NCBI GenBank assembly: GCA_964416445.1
Contig: CAYQEE010000010.1
Span: 1,136-65,135 of the forward strand
DNA: 64,000 nucleotides
Direction of reading: 5' to 3'
From: an uncultured Gammaproteobacteria bacterium
GTDB lineage: Bacteria > Patescibacteriota > Microgenomatia > Levybacterales > UBA12049
The notes beneath the pieces are model-generated. The model was not told the origin of the DNA and made no database searches. It was given only the letters and a program-made list of their open reading frames with translations. This document shows positions 4,312-63,861 of this stretch, piece by piece. Position numbers and translations under genes: made by a program. Every line of letters begins with the position of its first letter. The first letter of the stretch is position 1.

Positions 4312-4887
4312 ATGATTGAACGACATCTTTGCCCTCAGCAACAAAAAGGATTTACTTTAGTAGAGCTTCTCATTGTTATTGCTATTATTGGTGTGTTAGC
4401 AGGAGTATTACTGGTTGCCTTAAATCCTTTTGAACAATTTGCTCGAGCACGGGATGCCGGACGTGTAAGTGCCGTAACTCAAATTGGCAGAGCAGTTGCT
4501 AATTATTATACGTCTCATGCAGGCAATACGTTCCCTCCCACATCTACTTGGTATACGGAACTTACTGCGAATTCGAGTGACATTAACACCTTATCTGTAC
4601 CTCTTGTTTCAGGTGCAAATACTAATTGTACAGTCAATGCACAATCAGCAAATAGTAATGTGTGTTATAACACAATTAGTTCTGGTGCTGATGCAGCTGT
4701 GTGGACTGCTGCGGAATCACAAAACGAAATTAATAAATATAAAGCTGGTAATGGTGGAACGGCATGTGCAAATCTTGTTGAGTTTGTGTATGTTTTTTCA
4801 AAAGGGCAAGTGTATCTTGATTGTCTCGCGAAAGCAACAAGTCCAGTCGTTACCGGTTCAACACCTGATGTTTTAGTTGCCCCTTAA
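4312..4887 (+). CDS. Type IV pilin (prepilin-type N-terminal cleavage/methylation domain), candidate major pilin
   Basis: Leader MIERHLCPQQQKG followed by FTLVELLIVIAIIGVLAGV (class III signal, E at +5). C-terminal Cys pairs. AGGAGA RBS. TTGACA at 4252-4257 upstream. Confidence 0.75.
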   Translation: MIERHLCPQQQKGFTLVELLIVIAIIGVLAGVLLVALNPFEQFARARDAGRVSAVTQIGRAVANYYTSHAGNTFPPTSTWYTELTANSSDINTLSVPLVSGANTNCTVNAQSANSNVCYNTISSGADAAVWTAAESQNEINKYKAGNGGTACANLVEFVYVFSKGQVYLDCLAKATSPVVTGSTPDVLVAP

Positions 4888-4920
4888 GTATTTTTGAAAA
4901 TAATATAGTATAGTATCATT

Positions 4921-5697
4921 GTGGTTTATTGGTTTTCGTTTATTTTCATCTTTTGTCTTGGTGCCGTTATTGGAAGTTTCCTCAACGTTTTGATTGATCG
5001 AATCCCACGTGGTGAAAATCCCTTACAAGGAAGGTCTCATTGTGACTATTGTCATCATAAGCTTGCATGGTATGATCTTATTCCCTATCTATCCTTTATC
5101 CTGTTAAGAGGAAACTGTCGGTATTGTCATAAGTTTATTGGTTGGAAATATCCCTTTATTGAACTTTCTACAGCATGTTTGTTTTTAGCAACAGTGGTAA
5201 GTATGTCATTTACTTCTTCATTTGATCTTGTCCGTCTTTTGTATCTGCTTCTTATTGATGCATCCCTCATATGTATTTTTTATACTGATTTATTTTCCGG
5301 TATTATTCCTGATGTTATCATTTTCCCAACGATGCTGATTGCCGGACTGTATGTCTTAACAACACAAGGCACCGGGAGTATGTTTTATCTGTTTTCTGCT
5401 GTAGGCGCACTGTTATTTTTTCTCTTGCTCTTTACGATTACAAAAGGTCGTGGTATGGGATTTGGGGATGTGAAATTTTCATTTTTAATTGGTCTCATTC
5501 TTGGATGGCCGAATACGTTTTTAAGCATCTATGTGGCATTCTTGACAGGTGCGGCAGTTGCTTTCATACTAATTTTATGGAAGAAAAAAAAACTACGGGG
5601 AAGTACCATACCATTTGGTCCATTTCTTGTTTTTGGAACGTTTATCTCGCTCTTTTTCGGAACATTTCTCCTGCATCGTATTATGACCATTCTGTGA
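4921..5697 (+). CDS. pilD: Prepilin peptidase / N-methyltransferase PilD (peptidase A24)
   Basis: N-terminal CxxC...CxxC zinc motif (CDYCHHKLAW...CRYCHKF). Multi-TM protein. GMGFGDVKF catalytic Asp motif. Confidence 0.8.
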   Translation: MVYWFSFIFIFCLGAVIGSFLNVLIDRIPRGENPLQGRSHCDYCHHKLAWYDLIPYLSFILLRGNCRYCHKFIGWKYPFIELSTACLFLATVVSMSFTSSFDLVRLLYLLLIDASLICIFYTDLFSGIIPDVIIFPTMLIAGLYVLTTQGTGSMFYLFSAVGALLFFLLLFTITKGRGMGFGDVKFSFLIGLILGWPNTFLSIYVAFLTGAAVAFILILWKKKKLRGSTIPFGPFLVFGTFISLFFGTFLLHRIMTIL

Positions 5698-6203
5698 AAA
5701 TCAAAAGACAACAAGGATTTGGATTCATACAAATGATTGTTGCTGCTGCTTTTTTCTTTGTCATTGGGAGTATTCTTGTCAATATTTTTCATCCAATTGC
5801 GGCACTTCAAAACTCCAATGATGCAATACGAAAAACGGATCTCAATACATTAGATACTGCTCTTGAAACGTATTATCAGAAATATAAGCGATATCCTGAT
5901 GCAAGTAATGATTTTAAAATCATGGTAAGTAAACAATCACTCCAGTGGGGTCAAGATGGATTTGTTCCCTACCTCACTGTGCTTCCGCAAGATCCACTTT
6001 CCAATCATCAATATGTCTATTACACAGCAGATAATAACCAAGCATTTTGGCTTTATGCATCCTTGGAAAATAATGCTGATAGTCAGGCATGTGGGAAAAA
6101 TTGTAATTTCGGAAATGGAGATATTCCCGCAACTGCTTGTAGCAAAAGTGATCCTTCCATTCAATGTAATTATGGGGTATCAAGTTCCAATGTTACTCCG
6201 TAA
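5691..6203 (+). CDS. Pilin-like protein with atypical class III signal (GTG start overlapping the pilD stop)
   Basis: Frame continuous with the ORF-track 5505 ORF. Reads (V/M)KIKRQQG|FGFIQMIVAAAFFFVIGSILV. Q replaces the usual E at +5. C-terminal Cys-rich pseudopilin-like region. An alternative ATG at 5733 would lack the leader. Confidence 0.5.
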   Translation, partial: SVKIKRQQGFGFIQMIVAAAFFFVIGSILVNIFHPIAALQNSNDAIRKTDLNTLDTALETYYQKYKRYPDASNDFKIMVSKQSLQWGQDGFVPYLTVLPQDPLSNHQYVYYTADNNQAFWLYASLENNADSQACGKNCNFGNGDIPATACSKSDPSIQCNYGVSSSNVTP

Positions 6204-53191: not shown

Positions 53192-53416
53192 TTAATTCAT
53201 AAAGAGAATAAAAAACACCATTAGTCCAACTGAAAATATTGCAAAAAATGTACCAATTTTCATTAATGCTATTGAAAGGCCAGGTAATTCTAGTCCAAGT
53301 TGATGTCGTACTTTTTCGATTCTCACTTTATAGATCCAGTTATATATACCTATTAAAGCCGTGATGCTTAGAAGGACAACGTATACTGAATTTGTTACAT
53401 TACTCATTATTACCAC
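53192..53416 (-). CDS. Tiny 2-TM membrane protein (module copy 1)
   Basis: 74 aa. Two hydrophobic helices flanking a basic loop (KVRIEKVRHQ). 7-nt overlap with the upstream bPH_2 gene. A paralog with the same layout sits at 59713-59913. Confidence 0.5.
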   Translation of the reverse strand: MVIMSNVTNSVYVVLLSITALIGIYNWIYKVRIEKVRHQLGLELPGLSIALMKIGTFFAIFSVGLMVFFILFMN

Positions 53417-54054
53417 CTCCCTCCTAATGAAAATCTTCCTGTGCCTTGTTTACTTATCGCTTCAGGGGCTGTTGTCTGATGTGCTCGGAACCAAATTGGA
53501 CGAATTGCATTTGCATCCAATGTTGAGAACATATTATTCAAAAGGACAGCGATTTTTCTCGGATTTTGTATATCAGTTAAAATAAATTCCTCTTGATGAG
53601 TTGGACGATCAAATGTTATGACAATATCACCCATATCAACAAGTTCATTTAATATGCCATGTTTTTTCTCATCAATCTCTGTGCATCGAACTTGGTCCAG
53701 TAATACAATATTAATCCGATAAAAATATAATGGCGAAAAATAGACTTCTAAAATTTTTCTATTTGTCACAATGAACAGATGGAAATACCAGTCTACACTT
53801 GCTTTAACTATTAAACTCAACGTTGCACAAATTACCACCAATATACCTGAAATAAAAAGGGTTGGATAGTCGAGCAATTTGTCAAAAAGGACAAATAGAA
53901 TTAAGTAAAAAGGTATACTCAGTGCAATAATATTTATTATTTCACGACATAAGATTACCGGATGTTTTCTTTCTGCTAGCACTAACTGCTCATCAGGAAG
54001 GGTAATAAAATATTCGAGAGGACTTGGTATTTTTTTTTCAGTTATTCCTGCCAT
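53410..54054 (-). CDS. bPH_2 (YdbS/YdbT-like bacterial PH-domain) membrane protein (module copy 1)
   Basis: Two N-terminal TM helices followed by the WYFHLFIVTNRKILEV bPH_2 core. Clear paralog of 59917-60489 (WYFTFYIVTNKRLIIR). Confidence 0.6.
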   Translation of the reverse strand: MAGITEKKIPSPLEYFITLPDEQLVLAERKHPVILCREIINIIALSIPFYLILFVLFDKLLDYPTLFISGILVVICATLSLIVKASVDWYFHLFIVTNRKILEVYFSPLYFYRINIVLLDQVRCTEIDEKKHGILNELVDMGDIVITFDRPTHQEEFILTDIQNPRKIAVLLNNMFSTLDANAIRPIWFRAHQTTAPEAISKQGTGRFSLGGRW

Positions 54055-54227
54055 AACGTACCTCCTTTATCCGTCTCTTAATAGGTGTTTTCTAAAAGTA
54101 GTTATTCATATTTCGTTTCTTTGCCCCCTAACGTTACTCTTTTTAATTTTAAATGCAGTGAGATATCTTACCAAATACTAGTAATTTTAATTGCAATTTT
54201 ACTTTTTTATACTATAATTTCCCTATC

Positions 54228-54878
54228 TTGAATACGGAAACGTTTAAAAAGGTAAATGCATTCTTTCTACAATTCAATTCGTTTCATTATAAAAAACGAG
54301 AAACTATTCTATTCACTAAAGATGTTCCTCCTGGCGTGTTTTATATAACAAAAGGTTATGTGCGAAGTTACCTCCTTTCCAAAGAGGGTAAAGAATTAAC
54401 AGTAACTTTGCTCAAACCATTTGATGTTTTTCCCATGCATTGGGTTATTAATAACGTTCTTACGTCTCATTATTACGAAGCATTAGTACCGGTGGAAGTG
54501 TATCGATGTCCAAAAAAAAATTTTCTGTTCTTCTTAGAACAAAATCATGATGTCTTTTTTTATATAATCAGCTTAATTCTTTTAAGACTCCAAAATTCTT
54601 CAGAACGAATAGAAGCTGCTGTGCTGGGGAATGCCTCTGCGAAAATAGCAGGTATGCTTGAGTTTCTTATCGAAATTGCAGGAACAAAAAGCGGAAGTGG
54701 CGTTGTAATCGATTTACCGATAACTCATAAAGATATTGCCGCTTTTATAGGACTAGCGAGAGAAACAGTAAGTATCGAAGTAGAGAGACTACGAAGAGAA
54801 GGGATTTTAGAACAAAAAGCACACCGATTTGTTATTAAAGATTTAAAAAAACTTAAAGAGGAAACCAATATTGATTGA
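54228..54878 (+). CDS. Crp/Fnr-family transcriptional regulator (module copy 1)
   Basis: cNMP-binding beta-roll (GVFYITKGYVRSYLLSKEGKELTV) plus C-terminal HTH (IAAFIGLARETVSIEVERLRREG). Divergent from the bPH_2 gene. Confidence 0.7.
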   Translation: MNTETFKKVNAFFLQFNSFHYKKRETILFTKDVPPGVFYITKGYVRSYLLSKEGKELTVTLLKPFDVFPMHWVINNVLTSHYYEALVPVEVYRCPKKNFLFFLEQNHDVFFYIISLILLRLQNSSERIEAAVLGNASAKIAGMLEFLIEIAGTKSGSGVVIDLPITHKDIAAFIGLARETVSIEVERLRREGILEQKAHRFVIKDLKKLKEETNID

Positions 54879-54886
54879 ATTTACTC

Positions 54887-55555
54887 TTAACCTGCTTGTG
54901 TGGCTATTGCTCGTTCACCTGATAGACTAAATTTCGTTCCATGTTTTTTAGCCATATCCCAATAATTTGGTTTCTTCTTTTTACTAGCCATCCCTTGTTT
55001 TTGTTTTCCATTCATGGTTGTTAACCAAACACTTGCATTATCGATTTTCTGACGTGCATCTCGAACAACTGACAGCACCCAGTTAAAGAATGATTTATGA
55101 TATTTACCTGGACTTACTAGCGTTTGTCCTGTCGCTTCAACAATTTCCTTTTCTAATTGCTTGGTACTACTTGCTAAACTTTTTAATTCTAAAATAACTT
55201 CTTGTATTTCCTGTTTTGTTTTTTGTTCATCTACATGGTTTTTCTCGCCAGCTCGGAGGATTTCACCAATATAATCGATACCTGGTCGAATTGCTTGTGC
55301 GTGGTTTTCTACTGATTGTAGTTTCTTTGTTTCAGCTTGTTGTTGTGCTTTATGAGATTTTAGATCGAGTTCTTGACCTGGCTGAAGATCGCCTTTCTTA
55401 GGCAATGCAAAAAGTTCGTGAACTACTTCACTGAAGATTTCTTTTGTTTGTTGTTTAGTTTCTTCTCCAAACTCCCGAATTACTTCATACGGATTAACGT
55501 ATGAGTTCTTTAGGTTGTTTTTTTTCTTTTTCTGTACTATAGGGTCACCTAGCAT
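54887..55555 (-). CDS. Hypothetical charged/coiled-coil protein (222 aa)
   Basis: K/Q/E-rich, no recognised motif. Confidence 0.4.
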   Translation of the reverse strand: MLGDPIVQKKKKNNLKNSYVNPYEVIREFGEETKQQTKEIFSEVVHELFALPKKGDLQPGQELDLKSHKAQQQAETKKLQSVENHAQAIRPGIDYIGEILRAGEKNHVDEQKTKQEIQEVILELKSLASSTKQLEKEIVEATGQTLVSPGKYHKSFFNWVLSVVRDARQKIDNASVWLTTMNGKQKQGMASKKKKPNYWDMAKKHGTKFSLSGERAIATQAG

Positions 55556-55570
55556 AGTTGTATAACCCTA

Positions 55571-56419
55571 TCACAAATTCTTGAGAAAATCAAGTGTTTT
55601 CTGTTGTCTAAGTATACTGGCAAGGAGATAGACATTCGATTCTAATTGCTTTCGCTCTGTATCATCTTTTGCTTTTTTCAGAGCTTCCTCTACTTCTTCT
55701 GGATTGACTGCTATTTTCTCTACTTCAGCAATTTTTTGTAAAGCAAATTCAAATTTTATATCGTTTTCCGCCTTGGTTTGATATTCACTTTTTAAAGATT
55801 CTATTGATTTTCCTGTTGATGCAATATATTGGTCAAGGGAAAGTCCTAATGATTTGATCTCTGAGAGTAATTGAGAGAGAAGTCTTTCGACCTCTCCTTC
55901 TACGAGAATTTTGGGAACAGTTACCGTTATTTTATCAAGGAGTACTTTGACAATATCATCAAAATTAGGTTGTTGAGGCTCCTTACCGGGAATGACAATT
56001 TTACTTTTTACTGTTATGTTTTTAATAGCGTCTTTATAGTCATTTAACGCAACTTCAGGCATTTCACAAGTTGAAGCCGTAAATACCCAATCTTTCCCTT
56101 CCTCAAAATTTTCCACATGAATTTTAGGGTTAATGATTGGTTTAATATTATGTTCTGAGACTGCTTTTGAATATGCATCGGGCAATAGTTTTTTTAATAC
56201 TTCCTCACGTACTTTTTCAAAATTAATATGGTTTATTGCCACATTTTTTGGTGCTTTACCCTGTCTAAAGCCAGGAACCGTAACATATTGAACTGCTTTA
56301 TCAATCTCTATTTCTGTAGCTTTTTGCACATCTGCAGTAGGAAGCGTAATGGTAAAAGTAATAGTTCCATCAGTGTCTTTTTTTATAGTTGATATAGGTT
56401 TTGTTGTATCTTTTTTCAT
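55571..56419 (-). CDS. tig: Trigger factor (shortened, about 282 aa)
   Basis: Ribosome-binding signature VPGFRQGKAPKNV in the N-domain and C-terminal chaperone arm. About 150 aa shorter than canonical, so the PPIase domain is apparently absent. The ORF-track start (56506) reads through tRNA-Leu and was trimmed to the ATG at 56419. Confidence 0.7.
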   Translation of the reverse strand: MKKDTTKPISTIKKDTDGTITFTITLPTADVQKATEIEIDKAVQYVTVPGFRQGKAPKNVAINHINFEKVREEVLKKLLPDAYSKAVSEHNIKPIINPKIHVENFEEGKDWVFTASTCEMPEVALNDYKDAIKNITVKSKIVIPGKEPQQPNFDDIVKVLLDKITVTVPKILVEGEVERLLSQLLSEIKSLGLSLDQYIASTGKSIESLKSEYQTKAENDIKFEFALQKIAEVEKIAVNPEEVEEALKKAKDDTERKQLESNVYLLASILRQQKTLDFLKNL

Positions 56420-56430
56420 AGTTATATTAG

Positions 56431-56512
56431 TGGGTCGGAGAGGAATCGAACCTCCAACCCGTAAGGGATACGGTCCTAAACCGTACGCGTATGCCAGTTC
56501 CGCCACCGACCC
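56431..56512 (-). tRNA. tRNA-Leu (anticodon UAG), class II long variable arm
   Basis: Manual fold. Acceptor GGGUCGG/CCGACCC + A. Anticodon stem UACGG/CCGUA with loop UUUAGGA. Long variable arm. T-arm GGAGG-UUCGAUU-CCUCU. No encoded CCA. Confidence 0.75.
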
Positions 56513-56536
56513 GAAATTTTCTTAAGTATACTTTAT

Positions 56537-57133
56537 TTATAAGGAAATTGGAAGAGTCGGAACGAGTTGTGATTCATAATTTAATTTCGATGCTTCCATT
56601 TGAACTAAGAAAAAACGAGTATGTGTTGGCCAAGCATCTGAAGAAGCATAAACATGACCGATCTCTTCCAGACTCGAGAGGTGAAATTTATCAATATAAT
56701 CTTCCCTTAAGGATTTCGAAACAGTTTTAATTGATTCTTCGTAGGAAGTAAAGCAAGTCATATGGCCTGTATAAATTCCAAAACCAAAAGGGTTATTACA
56801 ATTTGCGGGAACTTCCTGTCCAAAGGTGGATTCAGTTCCTGCCACAGCAGCAACTAAATTCCATGGTAGGTTATATAAGTCCGCCTGATCTATGAATACT
56901 TGTGCATATTGCGATAGTGGGGAATTCCACTTTTGCAAATATTCTTTCAAAACCTCAACTCTGTAATCTTTTTTCTTTAGTGTTAACTGAGCCTCACGTG
57001 TTGCTCCTTGAGTTTCAAGAGCTGTGACATTAGGAGTGAGTTCAGCACTGTCTCCTGCCGCGTGTGCTTGCTTTATATTGAGAAGGGACAGTATGAGAAA
57101 AAAGAAAACAAAAATAGTAATTTTTGCTTTCAT
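56537..57133 (-). CDS. Secreted glucosaminidase-family (PF01832-like) peptidoglycan hydrolase, paralog A
   Basis: Signal peptide MKAKITIFVFFFLILSLLNIKQAHAAG. Core LVAAVAGTESTFGQ...NNPFGFGIYTGH. Paralogous to 57251-57859. Confidence 0.55.
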   Translation of the reverse strand: MKAKITIFVFFFLILSLLNIKQAHAAGDSAELTPNVTALETQGATREAQLTLKKKDYRVEVLKEYLQKWNSPLSQYAQVFIDQADLYNLPWNLVAAVAGTESTFGQEVPANCNNPFGFGIYTGHMTCFTSYEESIKTVSKSLREDYIDKFHLSSLEEIGHVYASSDAWPTHTRFFLVQMEASKLNYESQLVPTLPISL

Positions 57134-57250
57134 ACGAAATTGGCAATTATTTTGCCATAAAAAAAATCCTAACGTATGCATTTGAGAGGCATACCTTAGG
57201 ATCTAGAAAGTAGTATATCACACGACTATAGGTTTGTCAAGACCCCGTTT

Positions 57251-57859
57251 TTAGAGGATAGTAGATATCTGGTTCATGAAATAATTAACCTTACTTGACC
57301 AGCCATTATTATTGGTTGGGTTATAAAATTGTTGAATTTGCTCTGGGGTAATATACCCTTTTTTTATGTAATTTTGGGCAAATAATTTAGAGATTGTTTC
57401 GATTGCAGTTGGATAATCTTGAAAGCTTGTAGTATGACCATGATATATTCCCCACCCCCAGCAATTATTAGTATTTGGTATCTCAGTTTTACAAAGTTGA
57501 GATTCCTGAGCGGCAATTGCAGGAAGATATCGATAATCAATATTATAATGATCTGCAGCGTCAATGATATTTTGCGCATATTGTTCCAATACAGATCCAT
57601 ATAAATGGAAAAACGATTTCACACGTGCTACACGCGTATCTCCTGTACCCACAATTCCTGTTACTTCTGTCTCCGCAGATGGTAATGCTGCGTACGTTAT
57701 GGAAGAATTAGCAGTGAATTTTGTAGACAGCGTGAGGAATTGTTGTTTTTGATTTAAACTATAGGAATAGAAAGCAAAGAAAATAATACTAACTATGATA
57801 ACACAAGGTGTTATCGTAAAGAAACTTATAAGCAGAAATAAATTTCTCATGGATAACAA
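57251..57859 (-). CDS. Membrane-anchored glucosaminidase-family peptidoglycan hydrolase, paralog B
   Basis: N-terminal TM anchor. Core LPAIAAQESQLCK...NNCWGWGIYHGH, same motif spacing as paralog A. Confidence 0.55.
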   Translation of the reverse strand: MLSMRNLFLLISFFTITPCVIIVSIIFFAFYSYSLNQKQQFLTLSTKFTANSSITYAALPSAETEVTGIVGTGDTRVARVKSFFHLYGSVLEQYAQNIIDAADHYNIDYRYLPAIAAQESQLCKTEIPNTNNCWGWGIYHGHTTSFQDYPTAIETISKLFAQNYIKKGYITPEQIQQFYNPTNNNGWSSKVNYFMNQISTIL

Positions 57860-57925
57860 TTTATATTGGCATATTTCAAATAGGTTGTCAAGAAAAATTG
57901 CTTTTGTTACAATGGTTTGACTTTA

Positions 57926-58009
57926 GCCCAGGTGGCGGAATGGTAGACGCGCTAGCTTCAGGAGCTAGTTCCCTCAACAGGAGTGGGAGTTCGAGTCTCC
58001 CCTTGGGCA
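57926..58009 (+). tRNA. tRNA-Leu (anticodon CAG), class II
   Basis: Manual fold. Acceptor GCCCAGG/CUUGGGC (one G-U) + A73. Anticodon stem CUAGC/GCUAG with loop UUCAGGA. Long variable arm. T-arm GGGAG-UUCGAGU-CUCCC. Confidence 0.75.
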
Positions 58010-58156
58010 CTTTAATCGCCTGCAGTAAATATGAATTGATGTTTGAAGTAAAATAAATATATATTCCTCATTGCAATGAGGGTAAAATTTATTGCACCCA
58101 AATAATAAATCCAATATTCTCATATATATAAGAATATCTGTTGAAATTTATAAAAT

Positions 58157-58591
58157 ATGAATATACAAATTCGTGAAGCTAAAAAAGAAGATGTGTCTTG
58201 GATTGTTAACTCTGCAAATCAAACACGTGAACTTTGGAGTAGTAAAAAATCAAGGTGGTTTAAAGAAGAAGATATTCATATATTGCTCGATAAAAGGAAT
58301 ACGGATACAATTTTCTTAATTGCTGAGGCTGATTTTTCGCCTGTTGGATTTATTTTAGTACAACAACTCCATGTTTGGGCTATATGTTTTGGTCTTTATG
58401 TTACGTCAGATTTTCGAAGTAAAGGTATAGGAAAACAATTATTAAAAACTGTAGAAAATATATTACTTACAAGAGGTATTCAAACATTGGATTTGTTGGT
58501 AGAGAGGGATAATAGAAAAGCATTGGGATTTTATAAAAGAGAGGGTTTCGATCAAGGGTTTGAATTCTATTGGATGAGTAAAACTTTATAG
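58157..58591 (+). CDS. GNAT-family N-acetyltransferase
   Basis: Acetyl-CoA motif A region (FRSKGIGKQLL). 144 aa. Confidence 0.65.
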   Translation: MNIQIREAKKEDVSWIVNSANQTRELWSSKKSRWFKEEDIHILLDKRNTDTIFLIAEADFSPVGFILVQQLHVWAICFGLYVTSDFRSKGIGKQLLKTVENILLTRGIQTLDLLVERDNRKALGFYKREGFDQGFEFYWMSKTL

Positions 58592-58861
58592 CCGTCTGAA
58601 AAATAGAACTGTACCAAAATTATTACGACTAAATTAGGGATAATTTACGTTAACCTGACATAATTTTGTAATTGAAAATAAATAGTAAATATAGTTTCCA
58701 AAAGAATTTGATAATCGACAACTTCTGTGCACTTATCCCCAAATATAAAAACCTATGCTAATTTTTAAGGTTATAAGTTCAATTCTCCTTCGCAGTACTT
58801 TCTATCTTGATAAGGAATCTTTCCTGAGCTTTTATTTTTATAGTATAATTTAGTTAAATCT

Positions 58862-59686
58862 ATGGATGTATCAGCTATAGAACATTTACCACAAGAATAT
58901 ACAAAAAAAGACATTAGTACACAAAATGAGATATCTTTAGAAAAAGTAGAAAATAGATCGCCTGGTATCCGTGGATTTATCACTGAGATAACATCTAAAT
59001 ATTTCGACCCTACCACTGGAAAAAAGTCATTACCTAAAACAGATGAAGAAGTTGAGGAAATAGCGAGGATATACGGAATAGACGTAATCGGTATGGGTTC
59101 AGAGTCTGTCGTCTTTGCTAAACCTTCACGAACTGGCACATTAACAAAAACTGGTCATGAACAAGTGATTTCTCTGTTTTGGCAACCACACAATGAAAAC
59201 GAACTTAAGCAAATACAACTTGTAAGTGAAATTTTACATACTATTTATCCAGATGCATATCCGTTAATACAAAGCTTTATAGGTAAAGTTAAGTGGAATT
59301 TTACTGGCGTAGAGATACCGGTTACTGGAACAATTAGAGAAAGAGTTAGAACTTTACCTAATAACCAAATAGTTGGCAATATAGAAGATCAAATTTCAAT
59401 GGCTCATTCTGTCTGGGATGAATTTAATTTACCATTCAATTATCAGAATATGCTTGATATTGAAGAAGCTCACGGCAACGTAGGTATAAGGGAAACAAAA
59501 GAAGGAAAGTTCACAAATGTTTTTTTAGATACTATTCGTGGTGAAAAAAATTTTGAACTTCCTGATTTAGTAGGATTTGCAAACTACTTACGTGGTCAAG
59601 ATTCCAAACTTCCTCATACTCCTCTCCCTGAATCTGAAATTGGAAGGACAATAGAAAAAGTTTCTGATTTGATTAAATTAGTGTAA
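58862..59686 (+). CDS. Hypothetical protein (274 aa), weak kinase-like features
   Basis: Glycine-rich GMGSESVVF followed by K. HGNVGI...FLD motifs loosely reminiscent of a protein-kinase-like fold. Unconfirmed. Confidence 0.35.
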   Translation: MDVSAIEHLPQEYTKKDISTQNEISLEKVENRSPGIRGFITEITSKYFDPTTGKKSLPKTDEEVEEIARIYGIDVIGMGSESVVFAKPSRTGTLTKTGHEQVISLFWQPHNENELKQIQLVSEILHTIYPDAYPLIQSFIGKVKWNFTGVEIPVTGTIRERVRTLPNNQIVGNIEDQISMAHSVWDEFNLPFNYQNMLDIEEAHGNVGIRETKEGKFTNVFLDTIRGEKNFELPDLVGFANYLRGQDSKLPHTPLPESEIGRTIEKVSDLIKLV

Positions 59687-59712
59687 TTATTATTTCCTTT
59701 TATAGGTAGCTA

Positions 59713-59913
59713 CTAGGGAAAAAATCCAATAATAAAAAGTGTTCCAAGTATAAGTAGTACGTTAAATATGACAACATATTTCCAAACTTTATGGATACTA
59801 AGATGTGATTTTTTTTCAGCACGCCTAATTTTCATTACAATATAGAGGTATGCTAAAAGCATACATAATTCACAGAAGAAAAAAATAATTTTTATGTAAT
59901 ATGCGACGGTCAT
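59713..59913 (-). CDS. Tiny 2-TM membrane protein (module copy 2)
   Basis: 66 aa. TM, basic loop (MKIRRAEKKSHLSIHKVWKY), TM. 3 nt downstream of the bPH_2 gene stop. Confidence 0.45.
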   Translation of the reverse strand: MTVAYYIKIIFFFCELCMLLAYLYIVMKIRRAEKKSHLSIHKVWKYVVIFNVLLILGTLFIIGFFP

Positions 59914-59916
59914 ATA

Positions 59917-60489
59917 CTATTGTTTCACCATATTTGTTTCTATTTCTGCAAGTGCTTTTTCAATTTGTTCCGGATGATGTGGAGTTTTAAAACTGAATGG
60001 TTCGGGAATATCTTCTGTATGAATTGTTACGTAAATATCTTCTATATCAAGAAAATCATAAATAATATTTAATGTAATCCGTTTTGTTTCCAGTTCAACA
60101 CGGTTTTGTAATAGAAGTTCCTGATAGTATGTTCCAACAACTTTAAAATATTGTCTTATGATAAGGCGTTTATTTGTAACTATATAAAAAGTGAAATACC
60201 ACTTCATACTCGTATATGTTCCAACGATTGCTAATAGAGAGAGAAAAAGAAGTGACATATAGACAAAAACCTCCCAAAAATTTGGTAGCAATTTGAAGAT
60301 AAAGAGAAAGGTAAGAGTTATAAAAACAAACGCAATAAGCAACGTATGTGTGATAAAAAGCATTGCTAAAGCAATAGGATGTTGTCTCTGAACATTCAGC
60401 ACCTGTTCTTCAGGTAAAAGATCTATTGCTAATCTGCTATGTTCATACACAACTTGTTTGTTTTCCATATAAATCCATAGTTTCCACAA
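59917..60489 (-). CDS. bPH_2 (YdbS/YdbT-like) membrane protein (module copy 2)
   Basis: Two TM helices plus the WYFTFYIVTNKRLIIRQ core. 190 aa. Confidence 0.6.
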   Translation of the reverse strand: MWKLWIYMENKQVVYEHSRLAIDLLPEEQVLNVQRQHPIALAMLFITHTLLIAFVFITLTFLFIFKLLPNFWEVFVYMSLLFLSLLAIVGTYTSMKWYFTFYIVTNKRLIIRQYFKVVGTYYQELLLQNRVELETKRITLNIIYDFLDIEDIYVTIHTEDIPEPFSFKTPHHPEQIEKALAEIETNMVKQ

Positions 60490-60729
60490 TATTTTTATCT
60501 GAATGATAGTGAATATATTTTCCTTTTTGATAAAGTACCAGTTCCTAAAGTATTATAGTTGCAAAAATATAAAACAATAAATACCGTCTTAAGAAAATTT
60601 GCTCTGCCAAAGATGGGAAACGTATTATTTGTGATCTTGTTAAAATGTTGCATTATATACCCTCCTTGTTCTCACCTGCTATACTACTCTTGTTATAGCA
60701 AGAAGACAGTGATGACTGACACACATATT

Positions 60730-61377
60730 ATGGATATACAGGTAAACGAAAAAGTAACAAATTTCTTTACAAAATATAAAAAACAACAATTTAAAAAAGG
60801 CGAAATACTTATTCGTGCCGATGAAGATCCTCAAGGGATTTTTTATCTTGCAGATGGTATTGTCAGAAGCTACTATATTTCAAAAAAAGGTGACGAAATA
60901 ACCCTTAATATGTTTAAACCTCATACGTTTTTTCCAATGTCATGGGTTGTAAGTGACATTCACAATCAGCGTTATTTTGAAGCAATGACTGCATGCATTA
61001 CTTATAAAGTACCAAAGGAAAAAGTGTTAGCATTTATTAAAAAAGAACCAGATGTCGTTTTGGATTTGCTGAGACGTGTCTATATAGGTATTGAAGGTTT
61101 ATGGATGCATATTGAATACTTATCAAGCGGTAATGCGCTTGAAAAGTTAATTTCGACACTTCTCATTCTTGGGAAAAGGTTTGGAAGAGAAGAAGGTGGA
61201 AGAACGACAATTCAATTGAAATTAACAGAAAAAGAATTAGGAGAATACTCAGGCATGTATAGAGAAACGGTAAGCCGCGAAATGCAACTATTAAAAGAAA
61301 AAGGACTAGTGGTATTTAGTAAAGGAACTATCACTATTCCTGATCTTAAAAAATTGGAGAATGCTCTGCCATTATAA
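60730..61377 (+). CDS. Crp/Fnr-family transcriptional regulator (module copy 2)
   Basis: GIFYLADGIVRSYYISKKGDEITL beta-roll and C-terminal HTH (LGEYSGMYRETVSREMQLLKEKG). Start set at the ATG at 60730 by alignment with the copy-1 N-terminus. The ORF-track start at 60559 is probably an over-extension. Confidence 0.65.
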   Translation: MDIQVNEKVTNFFTKYKKQQFKKGEILIRADEDPQGIFYLADGIVRSYYISKKGDEITLNMFKPHTFFPMSWVVSDIHNQRYFEAMTACITYKVPKEKVLAFIKKEPDVVLDLLRRVYIGIEGLWMHIEYLSSGNALEKLISTLLILGKRFGREEGGRTTIQLKLTEKELGEYSGMYRETVSREMQLLKEKGLVVFSKGTITIPDLKKLENALPL

Positions 61378-61770
61378 CCAGGAAGCACCAAATTGTTCTC
61401 CGACCATAACTTTTGTAATTAATTCTTTTGTAGGTGTGATTGGATATTGTTTTTCTTGTTTTTTTGTACTTACAGGTAAACCCTCAGGTAATAAATACCC
61501 TTGCCATTTCCCTTCTCCGACAAATAATTCCAAATGTATCTCTGGTGTAAGTTTTTCTTCATAATGCACATGATAAAGTCGGTAACTTCCTTCGGCTAAC
61601 GTATTTTCTTCTTGTATTTTCCCATAAAACCTCTCAATAATTTCACCTGCATTACCTACGTTAAACCAAGCAAAAGTATCTTTGTTATTAAGGATGAGTA
61701 TTCTTTTTTTTTCGGTTGTTTCTATCAGCCGGTACTGACCTCGGTTAATAATACTAATCATATTTTTCAT
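61372..61770 (-). CDS. Hypothetical protein (132 aa)
   Basis: ORF convergent with the Crp copy-2 gene. No motif recognised. Confidence 0.35.
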   Translation of the reverse strand: MKNMISIINRGQYRLIETTEKKRILILNNKDTFAWFNVGNAGEIIERFYGKIQEENTLAEGSYRLYHVHYEEKLTPEIHLELFVGEGKWQGYLLPEGLPVSTKKQEKQYPITPTKELITKVMVGEQFGASWL

Positions 61771-62003
61771 ATTCTCATATTTTGTTAATTTTTTATGTGA
61801 CGATAAACACTTTTCTATTGTGATTATAGCTACGGAAATTTATGTTGATCATTTTTATTATTTATGATATAGCGCATTGTATATGAAACAACATATTACT
61901 TTTATCAATGAATTAATTAAATATACATTCCTTGATATTTATGGTATCTATCATGCATAGAAAGTAGGAGTAACTGTACGGGTGATATAGAAAAGAGTAT
62001 CGT

Positions 62004-63357: not shown

Positions 63358-63861
63358 ATGGGAAATGTCTGGGGTATACTTTTCGGATTAGTTTTTGTCT
63401 CTCTAGGTGTTGGGCTTATCTTTGGAATTAACCTGTGGCGATATTTTTGGCCGATTCTCCTTATTCTTATCGGATTTAGCATTCTCTATAATCAATCATC
63501 CAATAGAGTCTCTAAGCAAGTAACTCACGAAAGTGCTCTTGACTATTCTGCCGTATTTGGAGGAGAAAATAAGAAAGTTATTACCGATGATTATCAAGGA
63601 GGAAAAGTCACATCAGTATTTAGTCGGGTAACTCTTGATCTGAGAGATGCAAAAATACCTAAAAACTCGACGGTAGTGCTTGAGGTAAGTGCAGTATTTG
63701 GAAGCGCGAAAATAATTGTACCTAAGACATGGTTAGTACAAGGATCACTTGCTGGCGTATTTGGAGGATATAATAACGCTACTACTGTTCCGGAGAAACC
63801 AGATGGAACACTCATTTTGAAAGGCGTAGCGGTTTTCGGAAGCGGTGAAGTTATCAATTAG
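63358..63861 (+). CDS. LiaF-like (DUF2154/DUF4097-type) membrane protein
   Basis: Two N-terminal TM helices, then a beta-rich C-domain with reiterated (S/A)VFG(G/S) motifs (SAVFGGENK, SAVFGSAKIIVPK, AGVFGGYNN, VAVFGSGEV). TGn-extended -10 TGTGTATAAT at 63276-63285 upstream. Confidence 0.45.
   Translation: MGNVWGILFGLVFVSLGVGLIFGINLWRYFWPILLILIGFSILYNQSSNRVSKQVTHESALDYSAVFGGENKKVITDDYQGGKVTSVFSRVTLDLRDAKIPKNSTVVLEVSAVFGSAKIIVPKTWLVQGSLAGVFGGYNNATTVPEKPDGTLILKGVAVFGSGEVIN

Follow-up and report, generated by a model that had tools for sequence, protein, structure and literature searches.

A Crp/Fnr-family regulator gene divergent from a PH-membrane and hairpin gene pair in Levybacteria, and a second, lineage-specific arrangement in the same genome

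Two loci in the 64,000-nt stretch of DNA analysed here (the window), at 53192–54878 (copy 1) and 59713–61377 (copy 2), each carry a Crp/Fnr-type regulator gene opposite a membrane-protein gene and a small two-helix gene. This raises the questions of whether the three genes form a functional unit and whether that unit was duplicated, as a sequence-only reading had proposed. All six ORFs were confirmed at their coordinates in the ORF list, with identical order and orientation at both loci and tight coupling of the membrane/small gene pair (Table 1). The two genes of the pair are separated by a 3-nt gap in copy 2, and in copy 1 they overlap by 7 nt counted from the GTG start of sm1; a start at the ATG, with GGAGG 8–14 nt upstream, is more likely and would leave a 2-nt gap. 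A family profile search of the window found no third copy of the membrane gene. Both loci had been placed in a tRNA-rich accessory stretch. The region is tRNA-rich, as all four tRNAs of the window fall within 51.9–63.0 kb, but it does not appear accessory: the genes flanking the copies are ordinary (M20 peptidase, trigger-factor-like, DUF5660, GNAT, SDR and glycosyltransferase), with no mobile-element genes among them. The genome is Levybacteria-like (CPR).

Table 1. Features of the two loci in window coordinates
Feature	Coordinates	Strand	Description
sm1	53192..53407	-	2-TM hairpin; 71 aa from ATG 53407; formal ORF from GTG 53416, 74 aa
mem1	53410..54054	-	214 aa; N-terminal strand, two TM helices, cytoplasmic bPH_2-like PH domain, disordered C-tail
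Operator site B, AGTGAGATATCTTACC	54157..54172	.	Putative; degenerate Crp1-type dyad, palindrome
Operator site A, AGTAATTTTAATTGCA	54180..54195	.	Putative; degenerate TGTAA-N6-TTACA dyad, 33 nt 5′ of crp1 start
Crp1	54228..54878	+	216-aa Crp/Fnr-family regulator, TTG start, type-1 subfamily
sm2	59713..59913	-	66-aa 2-TM hairpin; separate small family
mem2	59917..60468	-	183-aa type-2 paralog of mem1; formal ORF reaches TTG 60489
Crp2	60712..61377	+	221-aa Crp/Fnr-family regulator of the other, populous subfamily; Pfam cNMP_binding and HTH_Crp_2
132-aa protein	61372..61770	-	Converges on and overlaps crp2 3′ end; no Pfam match

The regulators proved to be Crp/Fnr-type and mutually similar, as had been claimed. 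Pfam detected cNMP_binding (2e-11 in Crp1) and HTH_Crp_2 (3e-16 in Crp1) in both, and a full-length alignment gave 32% identity (E 2e-42). The recognition helix is RETVSIEVERL in Crp1 and RETVSREMQLL in Crp2, and the R and E of the RET motif are conserved in Crp1-type regulators. The two proteins belong to different subfamilies, because at least 120 proteins are 47–81% identical to Crp2, which is just 32–33% identical to Crp1-type proteins. Relative to E. coli CRP these subfamilies are sisters (33% versus about 20% identity) and have a KP..FP(M).W sensor motif in common (KP..FPMHWV in Crp1). In the Crp1-type sensor domain KP..FP..W replaces the cAMP-contact segment, and the FNR cysteine cluster is absent; the effector is of neither the cAMP nor the FNR type. 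Crp1-type regulators also have no conserved haem ligand, their sensor domain matched no known effector class, and they score far under every NCBIfam equivalog cutoff (NtcA 52.6 versus 245; CRP 41.5 versus 266).

The membrane proteins are likewise paralogous between the copies (26% identity, E 1e-11), mem2 scoring 157 bits against the membrane-family profile, and the motifs quoted earlier for both regulators and both membrane proteins are present in the alignments. The build of mem2 is strand-TM-TM-PH-helix, as in mem1, and its AF2 model (pLDDT 74) has the same order of elements. Conserved motifs of mem1 are DWYFHxYIVTNRKILE, VLLDQVRCTEID and ITFDRPTHQEEF, and the mem1-type PH domain carries near-invariant charged or polar residues in CTE(I/V)D and TFDRPTHQEE; mem2 lacks RCTEID and FDRPTHQEE and has LDIEDIYV in their place. 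The label 'YdbS/YdbT-like bPH_2' holds for the likeness to YdbS and fails for detection: unlike the regulator domains, bPH_2 was below detection by Pfam and NCBIfam in both proteins, and the assignment was reached via remote methods (fold and remote profile), with a PH-only profile aligning to bona fide bPH_2 repeats. At the level of fold and remote profile, the mem1-type protein is a divergent YdbS-like relative of bPH_2.

Unlike YdbS/YdbT, which are controlled by sigma-W, mem1-type proteins are predicted to be controlled via a divergent Crp-type regulator, fall under the Pfam bPH_2 threshold, have their own near-invariant motifs (CTEID, TFDRPTHQEE) and are confined to CPR (Levybacteria). Whereas YdbT has six TM helices and three PH domains, mem1 is paired with a 2-TM hairpin of ~70 aa that has no PH domain. 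As in YdbS/YdbT, mem1 comes first in its pair of tightly coupled membrane genes, and mem1 and mem2 resemble Bacillus subtilis YdbS (bPH_2, PF03703; COG3402/COG3428) in having two TM helices at the N-terminus and a single cytoplasmic PH domain after them, the architecture described for YdbS (PMC8657885). Bacterial PH domains are intracellular and ring-forming and have been proposed to be 'transporters or pores' (PMC2817789). The ring-forming PHb1/PHb2 structures (PDB 3dcx, 3hsa, 3b77; PF08000) are soluble and have no TM helices, whereas mem1 and mem2 each have two.

The small proteins (65–80 aa) have two ~20-residue hydrophobic helices and a basic loop, and are predicted to be classic integral-membrane hairpins obeying the positive-inside rule. 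The family motif of sm1 is YNWLY...R..R....GL..P; that of sm2 is K(I/V)xRAEKKSH..W, and sm2 homologs lie directly 3′ of the mem2-type gene at three other loci (L072, L073 and L074). The small proteins had been called clearly paralogous by protein alignment, which was not borne out: BLASTP gave E 3.3, a jackhmmer profile from 58 sm1-family members did not recruit sm2, and hhalign of the two families returned a probability of 48%, the bias from TM composition being roughly as large as the score.

To establish how widely the arrangement recurs, 60 Levybacteria species-representative genomes were surveyed at their type-1 membrane loci. The small 2-TM gene lies directly 3′ of the membrane gene in 52 species, starting no more than 30 nt from its stop codon in 44 of these, and is missing in the other eight. 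A Crp gene adjoins the membrane gene in 27/60, divergently in 26 and amid differing flanking genes, and is absent from 33; the full trio is present in 23. The two-gene membrane pair is the conserved core, and the regulator is facultative. For copy 1, neither a lack of homology between the copies nor a lack of trio co-occurrence was found, and the proposal that the trio is a functional unit is supported by the recurrence in 23/60 genomes together with an operator essentially confined to the Crp/membrane spacer. A DsbA-like gene then follows in 17/60 loci (28% of species), 12 of them also with Crp, and DsbB, CcdA, cupredoxin and CsoR are recurrent near type-1 loci; no DsbA-like gene was among the genes checked near either window copy. 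A literature search turned up no report of a bPH membrane pair coupled to a Crp regulator, in agreement with the earlier statement that a small-protein-containing version of this kind is undescribed. Copy 1 is a genuine, undescribed CPR module built from known parts.

The putative operator is a 16-bp palindrome, TGTAA-N6-TTACA, in type-1 Crp/membrane spacers, where tandem copies frequently lie exactly 23 bp apart (11 of 25 spacings between successive sites). It is perfect in 14/30 spacers and has at most one mismatch in 20/30 (shuffle maximum 11). Among 478 kb there were 15 perfect sites, 14 of them in the Crp/membrane spacer, where 0.02 were expected; the 33 loci without Crp had none. The CRP operator is TGTGA-N6-TCACA and the NtcA operator GTA-N8-TAC. 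The type-1 system resembles the Crp/Fnr family in the two-domain architecture of Crp1 and in a 16-bp dyad with 5-N6-5 geometry, and the palindrome includes the NtcA core. Unlike global Crp/Fnr regulators, those of Crp1 type appear to be local, their putative operators being arrayed in tandem every 23 bp at a single locus.

In the window, a PWM trained on genomes other than the window's own ranked sites B and A 7th and 9th among 63,981 positions, 23 bp apart; both have 2–3 mismatches and score 6.7–7.5 bits, with a few unrelated window positions scoring higher. Site A is homologous in position to sites at orthologous loci. It overlaps the -35-like hexamer of a predicted crp1 promoter (TTGCAA-16-TATAAT, 54191–54218), as site B does that of a predicted mem1 promoter (TTGGTA-17-TAAAAT, 54174–54146, minus strand), these promoter calls being consensus matches at chance density. 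The search for operators common to both divergent regions gave two degenerate sites in copy 1 and none in the spacer of copy 2 (60469–60711), and the two spacers have neither sequence nor operator in common.

An ancient duplication of the complete Crp, bPH and small-protein unit, with both copies retained as parallel regulator/effector modules, would fit the like order and orientation at both loci, the related membrane paralogs, the sister relationship and common motif of the Crp subfamilies, and the improbability of a random Crp/bPH-pair adjacency in a small genome. We regard it as unlikely, however, since the Crp subfamilies differ, spacer and operator are unshared, small-protein homology is unproven, and the closest relatives of each component keep other company. 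No bPH gene was found at five sampled loci of Crp2-type relatives; these relatives have a convergent gene for a ~130-aa protein as their conserved partner, and homologs of the 132-aa protein are equally convergent in L075, L077 and L081 (E 1e-32 to 1e-36). Three mem2-type relatives had no Crp nearby, their upstream neighbour being FTR1, PNPOx or Band_7, and the type-2 membrane/small pair was kept in 4/4 lineages. The comparisons do not support duplication of the whole trio, as the sequence-only reading had it. Copy 2 is a distantly paralogous type-2 membrane pair beside a Crp of the sister subfamily, in an adjacency that appears lineage-specific, having been seen solely in the window organism (L069–L071 are the same organism). 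That adjacency could be functional, as a Crp placed at random beside a bPH pair is improbable in a ~1,000-gene genome. Chance adjacency of common domains, with the regulator and membrane pair functionally unlinked, receives scarcely any credence: the restriction of the copy-2 adjacency to one organism and the missing operator favour it for copy 2 only, and although the regulator is missing at 33/60 type-1 loci, for copy 1 it is refuted by the recurrence of the divergent arrangement in 26/60 species with varied flanking genes and by an operator confined to the spacer and absent wherever Crp is absent.

Two further readings concern the products. The small ORF might encode an exported or toxic bacteriocin-like peptide, with the PH protein as exporter or immunity factor, comparable to DdE/DdF of enterocin DD14. 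Export of leaderless bacteriocins depends on DdE and DdF, peptide export being the sole experimentally supported role for this class of PH membrane protein (PMC8657885), and in the DdE/DdF locus and the LnqC/D and Orf7/8 loci of other leaderless bacteriocins, as here, PH membrane proteins are encoded beside small hydrophobic products, here also cationic. We consider this highly improbable, as the small product has the form of an integral-membrane hairpin, is vertically conserved in 52/60 species with a stable motif, and has no leaderless bacteriocin-like peptide, ABC transporter or YdbT-like multi-PH partner nearby. The membrane PH protein might alternatively be a sensor or anti-regulator that sequesters Crp, giving membrane-to-DNA signalling beyond mere regulated expression. 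Its PH domain is cytoplasmic, CTE(I/V)D and TFDRPTHQEE could provide a site for interaction or ligand binding, and the Crp sensor domain fits no known effector class; yet conservation of these residues is just as high in the 33 species without Crp or operator at the locus, and mem2 lacks them although it lies beside a Crp, so this too seems very unlikely.

The observed gene content, homology, fold, neighbourhood conservation, and motif enrichment and placement are, with moderate confidence, best explained by a Crp1-type-controlled, two-gene PH-membrane/hairpin operon, with copy 2 as a lineage-specific adjacency. DNA binding, the direction of regulation, complex formation and the physiological role we infer as follows. 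The conserved unit would be a translationally coupled operon for a PH membrane protein and a ~70-aa two-helix hairpin, accompanied in about 45% of species, window copy 1 included, by a dedicated divergent Crp/Fnr-family regulator. The most likely targets of this regulator are one to four TGTAA-N6-TTACA dyads of 16 bp, phased at 23 bp, in the common spacer. Because these sites overlap the two divergent promoters, the regulator's own gene and the membrane operon would both be under its control. The two membrane products may form a small complex serving envelope protection or translocation, by analogy with YdbS/YdbT, DdE/DdF and the ring-forming bacterial PH domains. Because in Levybacteria the operon is often shared with a membrane-anchored DsbA-like oxidoreductase, the complex could plausibly function in thiol or metal stress of the envelope.

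All six open reading frames (ORFs) assigned to the two loci are present in the window, and no third copy of any component was found elsewhere in its 64 kb. At each locus, a membrane protein with two transmembrane (TM) helices and a bacterial PH domain (mem1, mem2) is followed on the minus strand by a tiny two-TM protein (sm1, sm2), with a Crp-type regulator (Crp1, Crp2) in divergent orientation. The sequence-only reading had taken the whole trio to be anciently duplicated and to form a functional unit. Comparison with relatives indicated that what looks like a duplicated trio consists of a single conserved module, copy 1, and a look-alike, copy 2, which carries a different Crp subfamily.

The closest named homologs were from Candidatus Levybacteria/Levyibacteriota, within the CPR/Patescibacteria, and counterparts 99–100 % identical to the window proteins were found in the assemblies of SRR12266071, SRR12266072 and SRR12266074. 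G+C content is 31–40 %; around copy 2 (58001-62000) it drops to 0.31, compared with 0.33–0.42 in the rest of the window. The window's four tRNA genes all fall within 51.9–63.0 kb, and no mobile-element genes were seen. For sm1, a GGAGG motif lies 8–14 nt 5' of the most likely start codon, and the mem1 stop is separated from sm1 by a 2-nt gap.

Coordinates of the features discussed (window positions, except for the two genes from Levybacteria species loci L017 and L041)
Feature	Position	Strand	Remarks
sm1	53192-53416	-	ORF; start most likely ATG 53407
mem1	53410-54054	-	
Predicted operator site	54157-54172		AGTGAGATATCTTACC; degenerate; PWM rank 7 of 63,981 positions
Predicted operator site	54180-54195		AGTAATTTTAATTGCA; degenerate; PWM rank 9 of 63,981 positions
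Crp1	54228-54878	+	
311-aa ORF	55571-56506	-	formal ORF
tRNA-Leu	56430-56512	-	
214-aa ORF	56537-57181	-	
202-aa ORF	57251-57859	-	
sm2	59713-59913	-	
mem2	59917-60489	-	formal ORF; start ATG 60468, 183 aa (ortholog alignment and public gene calls)
Crp1-type PWM match	60016-60031		TGTATGAATTGTTACG; rank 3
Crp1-type PWM match	60107-60122		TGTAATAGAAGTTCCT; rank 12
Crp2	60559-61377	+	enclosing ORF; start ATG 60712, 221 aa (ortholog alignment and public gene calls)
132-aa ORF	61372-61770	-	
167-aa ORF	63358-63861	+	
DsbA-like gene (L017)	4904-5776		
DsbA-like gene (L041)	4648-5487		

Other genes of the stretch were also noted. The neighbouring 214-aa and 202-aa ORFs both begin with a hydrophobic segment and may encode paralogous secreted proteins; in Pfam the former gave a weak, sub-threshold Glucosaminidase match and the latter none. 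The 311-aa ORF, trigger-factor-like by eye, extends formally into the tRNA-Leu gene, and its true start is probably an internal Met (MKKDTTKP...). A few kilobases from copy 2, a 167-aa membrane protein with sub-threshold LiaF-TM and LiaF-like_C matches is a possible cell-envelope stress component.

The membrane proteins are paralogous, as proposed from the sequence (26 % identity, E 1e-11). Direct assignment with Pfam and NCBIfam returned no matches for mem1, mem2 or the small proteins. For the Pfam bPH_2 model (PF03703) specifically, mem1 and mem2 fell short of the gathering score, with no match at E≤1, and the model reached a single one of 61 family members, at E 0.0069. The numbers of cluster representatives retrieved by an exhaustive HMMER search with a family profile were 140 (E≤1e-30), 1,438 (E≤1e-10) and 4,258 (E≤1e-3). 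This profile matched the homologous proteins P0236 (E 5e-31) and P0241 (E 9e-28), which themselves exceed the Pfam bPH_2 threshold (61 and 54 bits; cutoff 22). A TM-free, PH-only profile aligned to every bPH_2 repeat of P0236 and P0241 at 27–37 bits, and mem2 scored 96 bits on it. A PH-like beta-sandwich with a C-terminal helix cap, characteristic of bPH_2/YdbS-like members, was found. The TM helices (32-59 and 64-90 in mem1, 31-58 and 64-91 in mem2) all precede the PH strands, which is the YdbS architecture, and by sequence the basic residues are found ahead of TM1 and C-terminal to TM2. The mem2 model (pLDDT 74) has its structural elements ordered as in mem1. Because of the profile continuity to P0236 and P0241 and the score and model of mem2, mem1 and mem2 are classed as divergent YdbS-type bPH_2 relatives; the bPH_2/YdbS-like label of the sequence-only reading thus stood in kind, by remote profiles and fold, but the Pfam family model itself misses both proteins. 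A sequence search of the PDB with the family-alignment profile gave a chance-level match only, and 3b77 was rejected as a bPH_2 structure since it belongs to PF08000 (Xu et al., PMC2817789).

The two membrane proteins represent distinct types. Type 1, the family of mem1, has the near-invariant motifs DWYFHxYIVTNRKILE, CTE(I/V)D and TFDRPTHQEE; mem2 lacks the latter two and carries LDIEDIYV, common to the homologs P0240, P0243 and P0244. In the alignment, the Cys of CTE(I/V)D is conserved in loci with and without a Crp gene alike, bar one subclade with Cys replaced by Ser (QVKSTE), made up of L033, L045, L048, L052, L059 and L062, all Crp-containing.

A homolog of sm1 was found by jackhmmer directly 3' of the membrane gene in 52/60 species-representative genomes, its start lying within 30 nt of the membrane-gene stop in 44 of the 52. 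These proteins are about 70 aa long (65–80 aa), with two hydrophobic helices and the segment YNWLY...R..R....GL..P. The sm2 family (65–66 aa) has the motif K(I/V)xRAEKKSH..W, and in each of the four available lineages a member lies immediately 3' of the mem2-type gene. Since the small gene directly follows the membrane gene in both types, the conserved core of each is a two-gene membrane pair. The small proteins had been described as clearly paralogous by alignment, which did not hold: BLASTP between sm1 and sm2 gave a non-significant E 3.3, hhalign of the two families a probability of 48 % (P 1.9e-4), and hmmsearch a score of 11.8 against a composition bias of 10.5. Common to both are only size, position and a two-TM topology with a basic loop. 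On this comparison, sm1 and sm2 appear analogous in size, position and topology and are not demonstrably homologous.

Both regulators are of Crp/Fnr type, as first read, with the cNMP_binding domain (PF00027; Crp1 E 2e-11, 44.2 bits; Crp2 E 3.1e-13, 50 bits; cutoff 27.5) and a C-terminal HTH (PF13545/PF00325; HTH_Crp_2 59.6 and 57.5 bits respectively; cutoff 27). Over their full length they share 32 % identity (E 2e-42). Neither falls into a known effector class: CooA, NtcA, DNR, FNR and CRP are at near-equal distance from both (E about 1e-13), and scores against the NCBIfam equivalogs for CRP, FNR, NtcA and CooA were 4–6 times below cutoff. The cAMP-contact segment is missing from both and KP..FP..W stands in its place; there is no FNR cysteine cluster, each protein having a single Cys. 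CooA-like haem sensing by Crp1, considered for the alignment of His70 with the CooA ligand, was rejected as this His is not conserved among orthologs. The Crp1-type group is coherent: its recognition helix reads RET(V/T/A)S(I/V/L)E..K(L/F), its sensor motif KP.D.FP..W.

Copy 1 recurs in relatives. A Crp gene adjoins the type-1 membrane gene in 27/60 species (26 divergent, one co-directional), and the full trio co-occurs in 23/60, in line with the original proposal. On the complete Levybacteria chromosome OZ246394.1, the locus has no Crp gene. To identify candidate operators, 30 divergent spacers were searched, with 20 shuffles as control. A TGTAA-N6-TTACA dyad was perfect in 14/30 spacers and present with at most one mismatch in 20/30, against a shuffle maximum of 11. 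This predicted operator, which applies to the Crp1-type only, has the 5-N6-5 palindrome geometry of the Crp/Fnr family and lies 27–60 nt 5' of the crp ORF start. Among successive sites, 11/25 spacings were exactly 23 bp, and the L028 spacer has four dyads in a row at this centre-to-centre distance (spacer positions 90-174). Such 23-bp phasing is unusual for Crp-family sites. Across 478 kb of species loci, 15 perfect dyads were observed against 1.8 expected by chance; 14 of the 15 fall in Crp/membrane spacers, where 0.02 are expected, and none was found 5' of the membrane gene in the 33 Crp-less loci. Operator and regulator gene thus occur together, a pattern that marks the Crp1-type protein as a putative dedicated local regulator. 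A co-variation of helix and half-site (for example, KKF helices with TGTTA-N6-TAACA) was set aside because it tracks phylogeny and so is not independent evidence; the operators of the Cys-to-Ser subclade are TGTTA-N6-TAACA and AGTAA-N6-TTACT. An Rfam search for RNA elements in the long spacers returned only two tRNAs.

In the window, the copy-1 spacer carries two degenerate sites, 23 bp apart and at a position homologous to the dyads of orthologs; they rank 7th and 9th with a position weight matrix (PWM) trained on other genomes only. They resemble the orthologs' secondary sites AGTAA-ttttaa-TTACT (L033) and AGTGA-gtttaa-TTACT (L004). In each direction, the best promoter-like match, which is a pattern match only, has a -35-like hexamer that one of these sites overlaps. 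Because of this placement over both promoter-like matches, Crp1 would be predicted to control its own gene (autoregulation) and the mem1-sm1 operon, with repression as the simplest mode. The mem2 coding sequence contains two of the 15 best PWM matches in the window, which could reflect chance or hint at cross-talk between the loci.

Copy 2 differs from this pattern. Crp2 is matched by no fewer than 120 relatives at 47–81 % identity and is about 33 % identical to the type-1 Crps, with E. coli CRP about 20 % identical to both; KP..FP(M).W is common to the two subfamilies, and the Crp2-type recognition helix is RETVSRE. No bPH gene was found near the Crp2-type gene in five relatives' loci (L075, L076, L077, L080 and L081; a metagenome scan for Crp2 relatives yielded only three loci). 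Conversely, no Crp gene lay near the mem2-type gene in three other organisms, where the upstream genes were FTR1, PNPOx and Band_7. Looking for palindromic operator motifs common to the two divergent spacers had also been suggested; none was found, and the spacers have no sequence similarity. The copy-2 spacer contains no Crp1-type dyad within two mismatches, and the five Crp2-type loci yielded only dissimilar GTGA/TCAC palindromes, without a match in the window. These comparisons do not support duplication of the trio as a unit. A lineage-specific functional link in copy 2 may nevertheless exist, since the samples are small (three mem2-type and five Crp2-type loci) and chance adjacency is a priori unlikely in a small genome. 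The 3' end of crp2 is overlapped by 6 nt by a convergent 132-aa ORF without a Pfam match; homologs of this ORF occupy the same convergent, end-overlapping position in L075, L077 and L081 (E 1e-32 to 1e-36), which identifies the predicted 132-aa product as a conserved partner of Crp2.

For the 60 species loci (L009-L068), the closest genes outside the module were surveyed with Pfam. A DsbA-like thioredoxin gene lies directly 3' on the same strand in 17/60 species, 12 of these also having a Crp gene, and its product has a single TM anchor. Recurrent neighbours were cupredoxin (five), DsbD-type (four), CcdA-type (three) and CsoR (three) genes, with DsbB, thioredoxin, Zip and Fur genes in individual loci. 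Eight loci lack the small gene, and in every one of them the DsbA-like gene directly follows the membrane gene. Fusion of the small protein to, or its replacement by, the DsbA-like N-terminus was rejected, because the DsbA-like proteins have a single TM helix and do not resemble sm1. No DsbA-like gene lies near either window copy, and the genes adjoining both are ordinary.

Experimental data on this protein class were found in the literature only for the YdbS/YdbT-like DdE/DdF, needed for leaderless bacteriocin export (PMC8657885). Membrane-anchored bacterial PH proteins have been proposed to form ring-shaped 'transporters or pores' (Xu et al., PMC2817789). Unlike in YdbS/YdbT, the partner here is a 65–80-aa two-TM protein without PH (52/60 species and both copies) rather than a multi-PH YdbT. 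Unlike in DdE/DdF-type loci, no ABC transporter or YdbT-like gene occurs in any neighbourhood examined, and the small product is a TM hairpin. A role of mem1 and mem2 in antimicrobial-peptide tolerance or export would be a literature analogy (PMC8657885). Based on the DdE/DdF export role, the PH ring proposal and the DsbA/metal gene context, the best-supported mechanistic reading, whose last step we infer, is that the membrane and small proteins would form a small membrane complex for envelope protection or translocation. In many Levybacteria this complex would have a link to thiol or metal homeostasis outside the cytoplasm, and a dedicated Crp-type switch would control it in about half of the species.

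The type-1 PH domain has a near-invariant Cys/His/Asp/Glu cluster (CTE(I/V)D, TFDRPTHQEE). It is conceivable, though improbable, that this domain and its two-TM partner are a minimal CPR-specific membrane device which works with the frequently co-operonic anchored DsbA, a thiol or metal signal being sensed or handled at the membrane's inner face, and that the divergent Crp-type regulator answers a ligand via the KP..FP..W pocket. If true, Crp regulators would gain a new sensory class, and a bPH_2-type protein would have its first assigned function outside Firmicutes.

All components are from known superfamilies. What is new is the micro-protein in place of YdbT, the motifs specific to the family, the putative local Crp regulator and the array of predicted operators phased at 23 bp; in full-text literature searches, neither the dyad nor a Crp-coupled bPH module nor this CPR family was found described. 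To our knowledge, bPH_2/YdbS-type membrane proteins are widespread and almost uncharacterized, and tractable regulatory circuits in CPR bacteria are very few. A family of ~140 clusters at 50 % identity, overlooked by Pfam, is hereby defined, along with a conserved micro-protein partner left out of most annotations. The copy-1 module offers a compact, testable CPR circuit of a defined regulator, a 16-bp predicted operator repeated in tandem at an unusual 23-bp phasing, and a membrane target of two genes.
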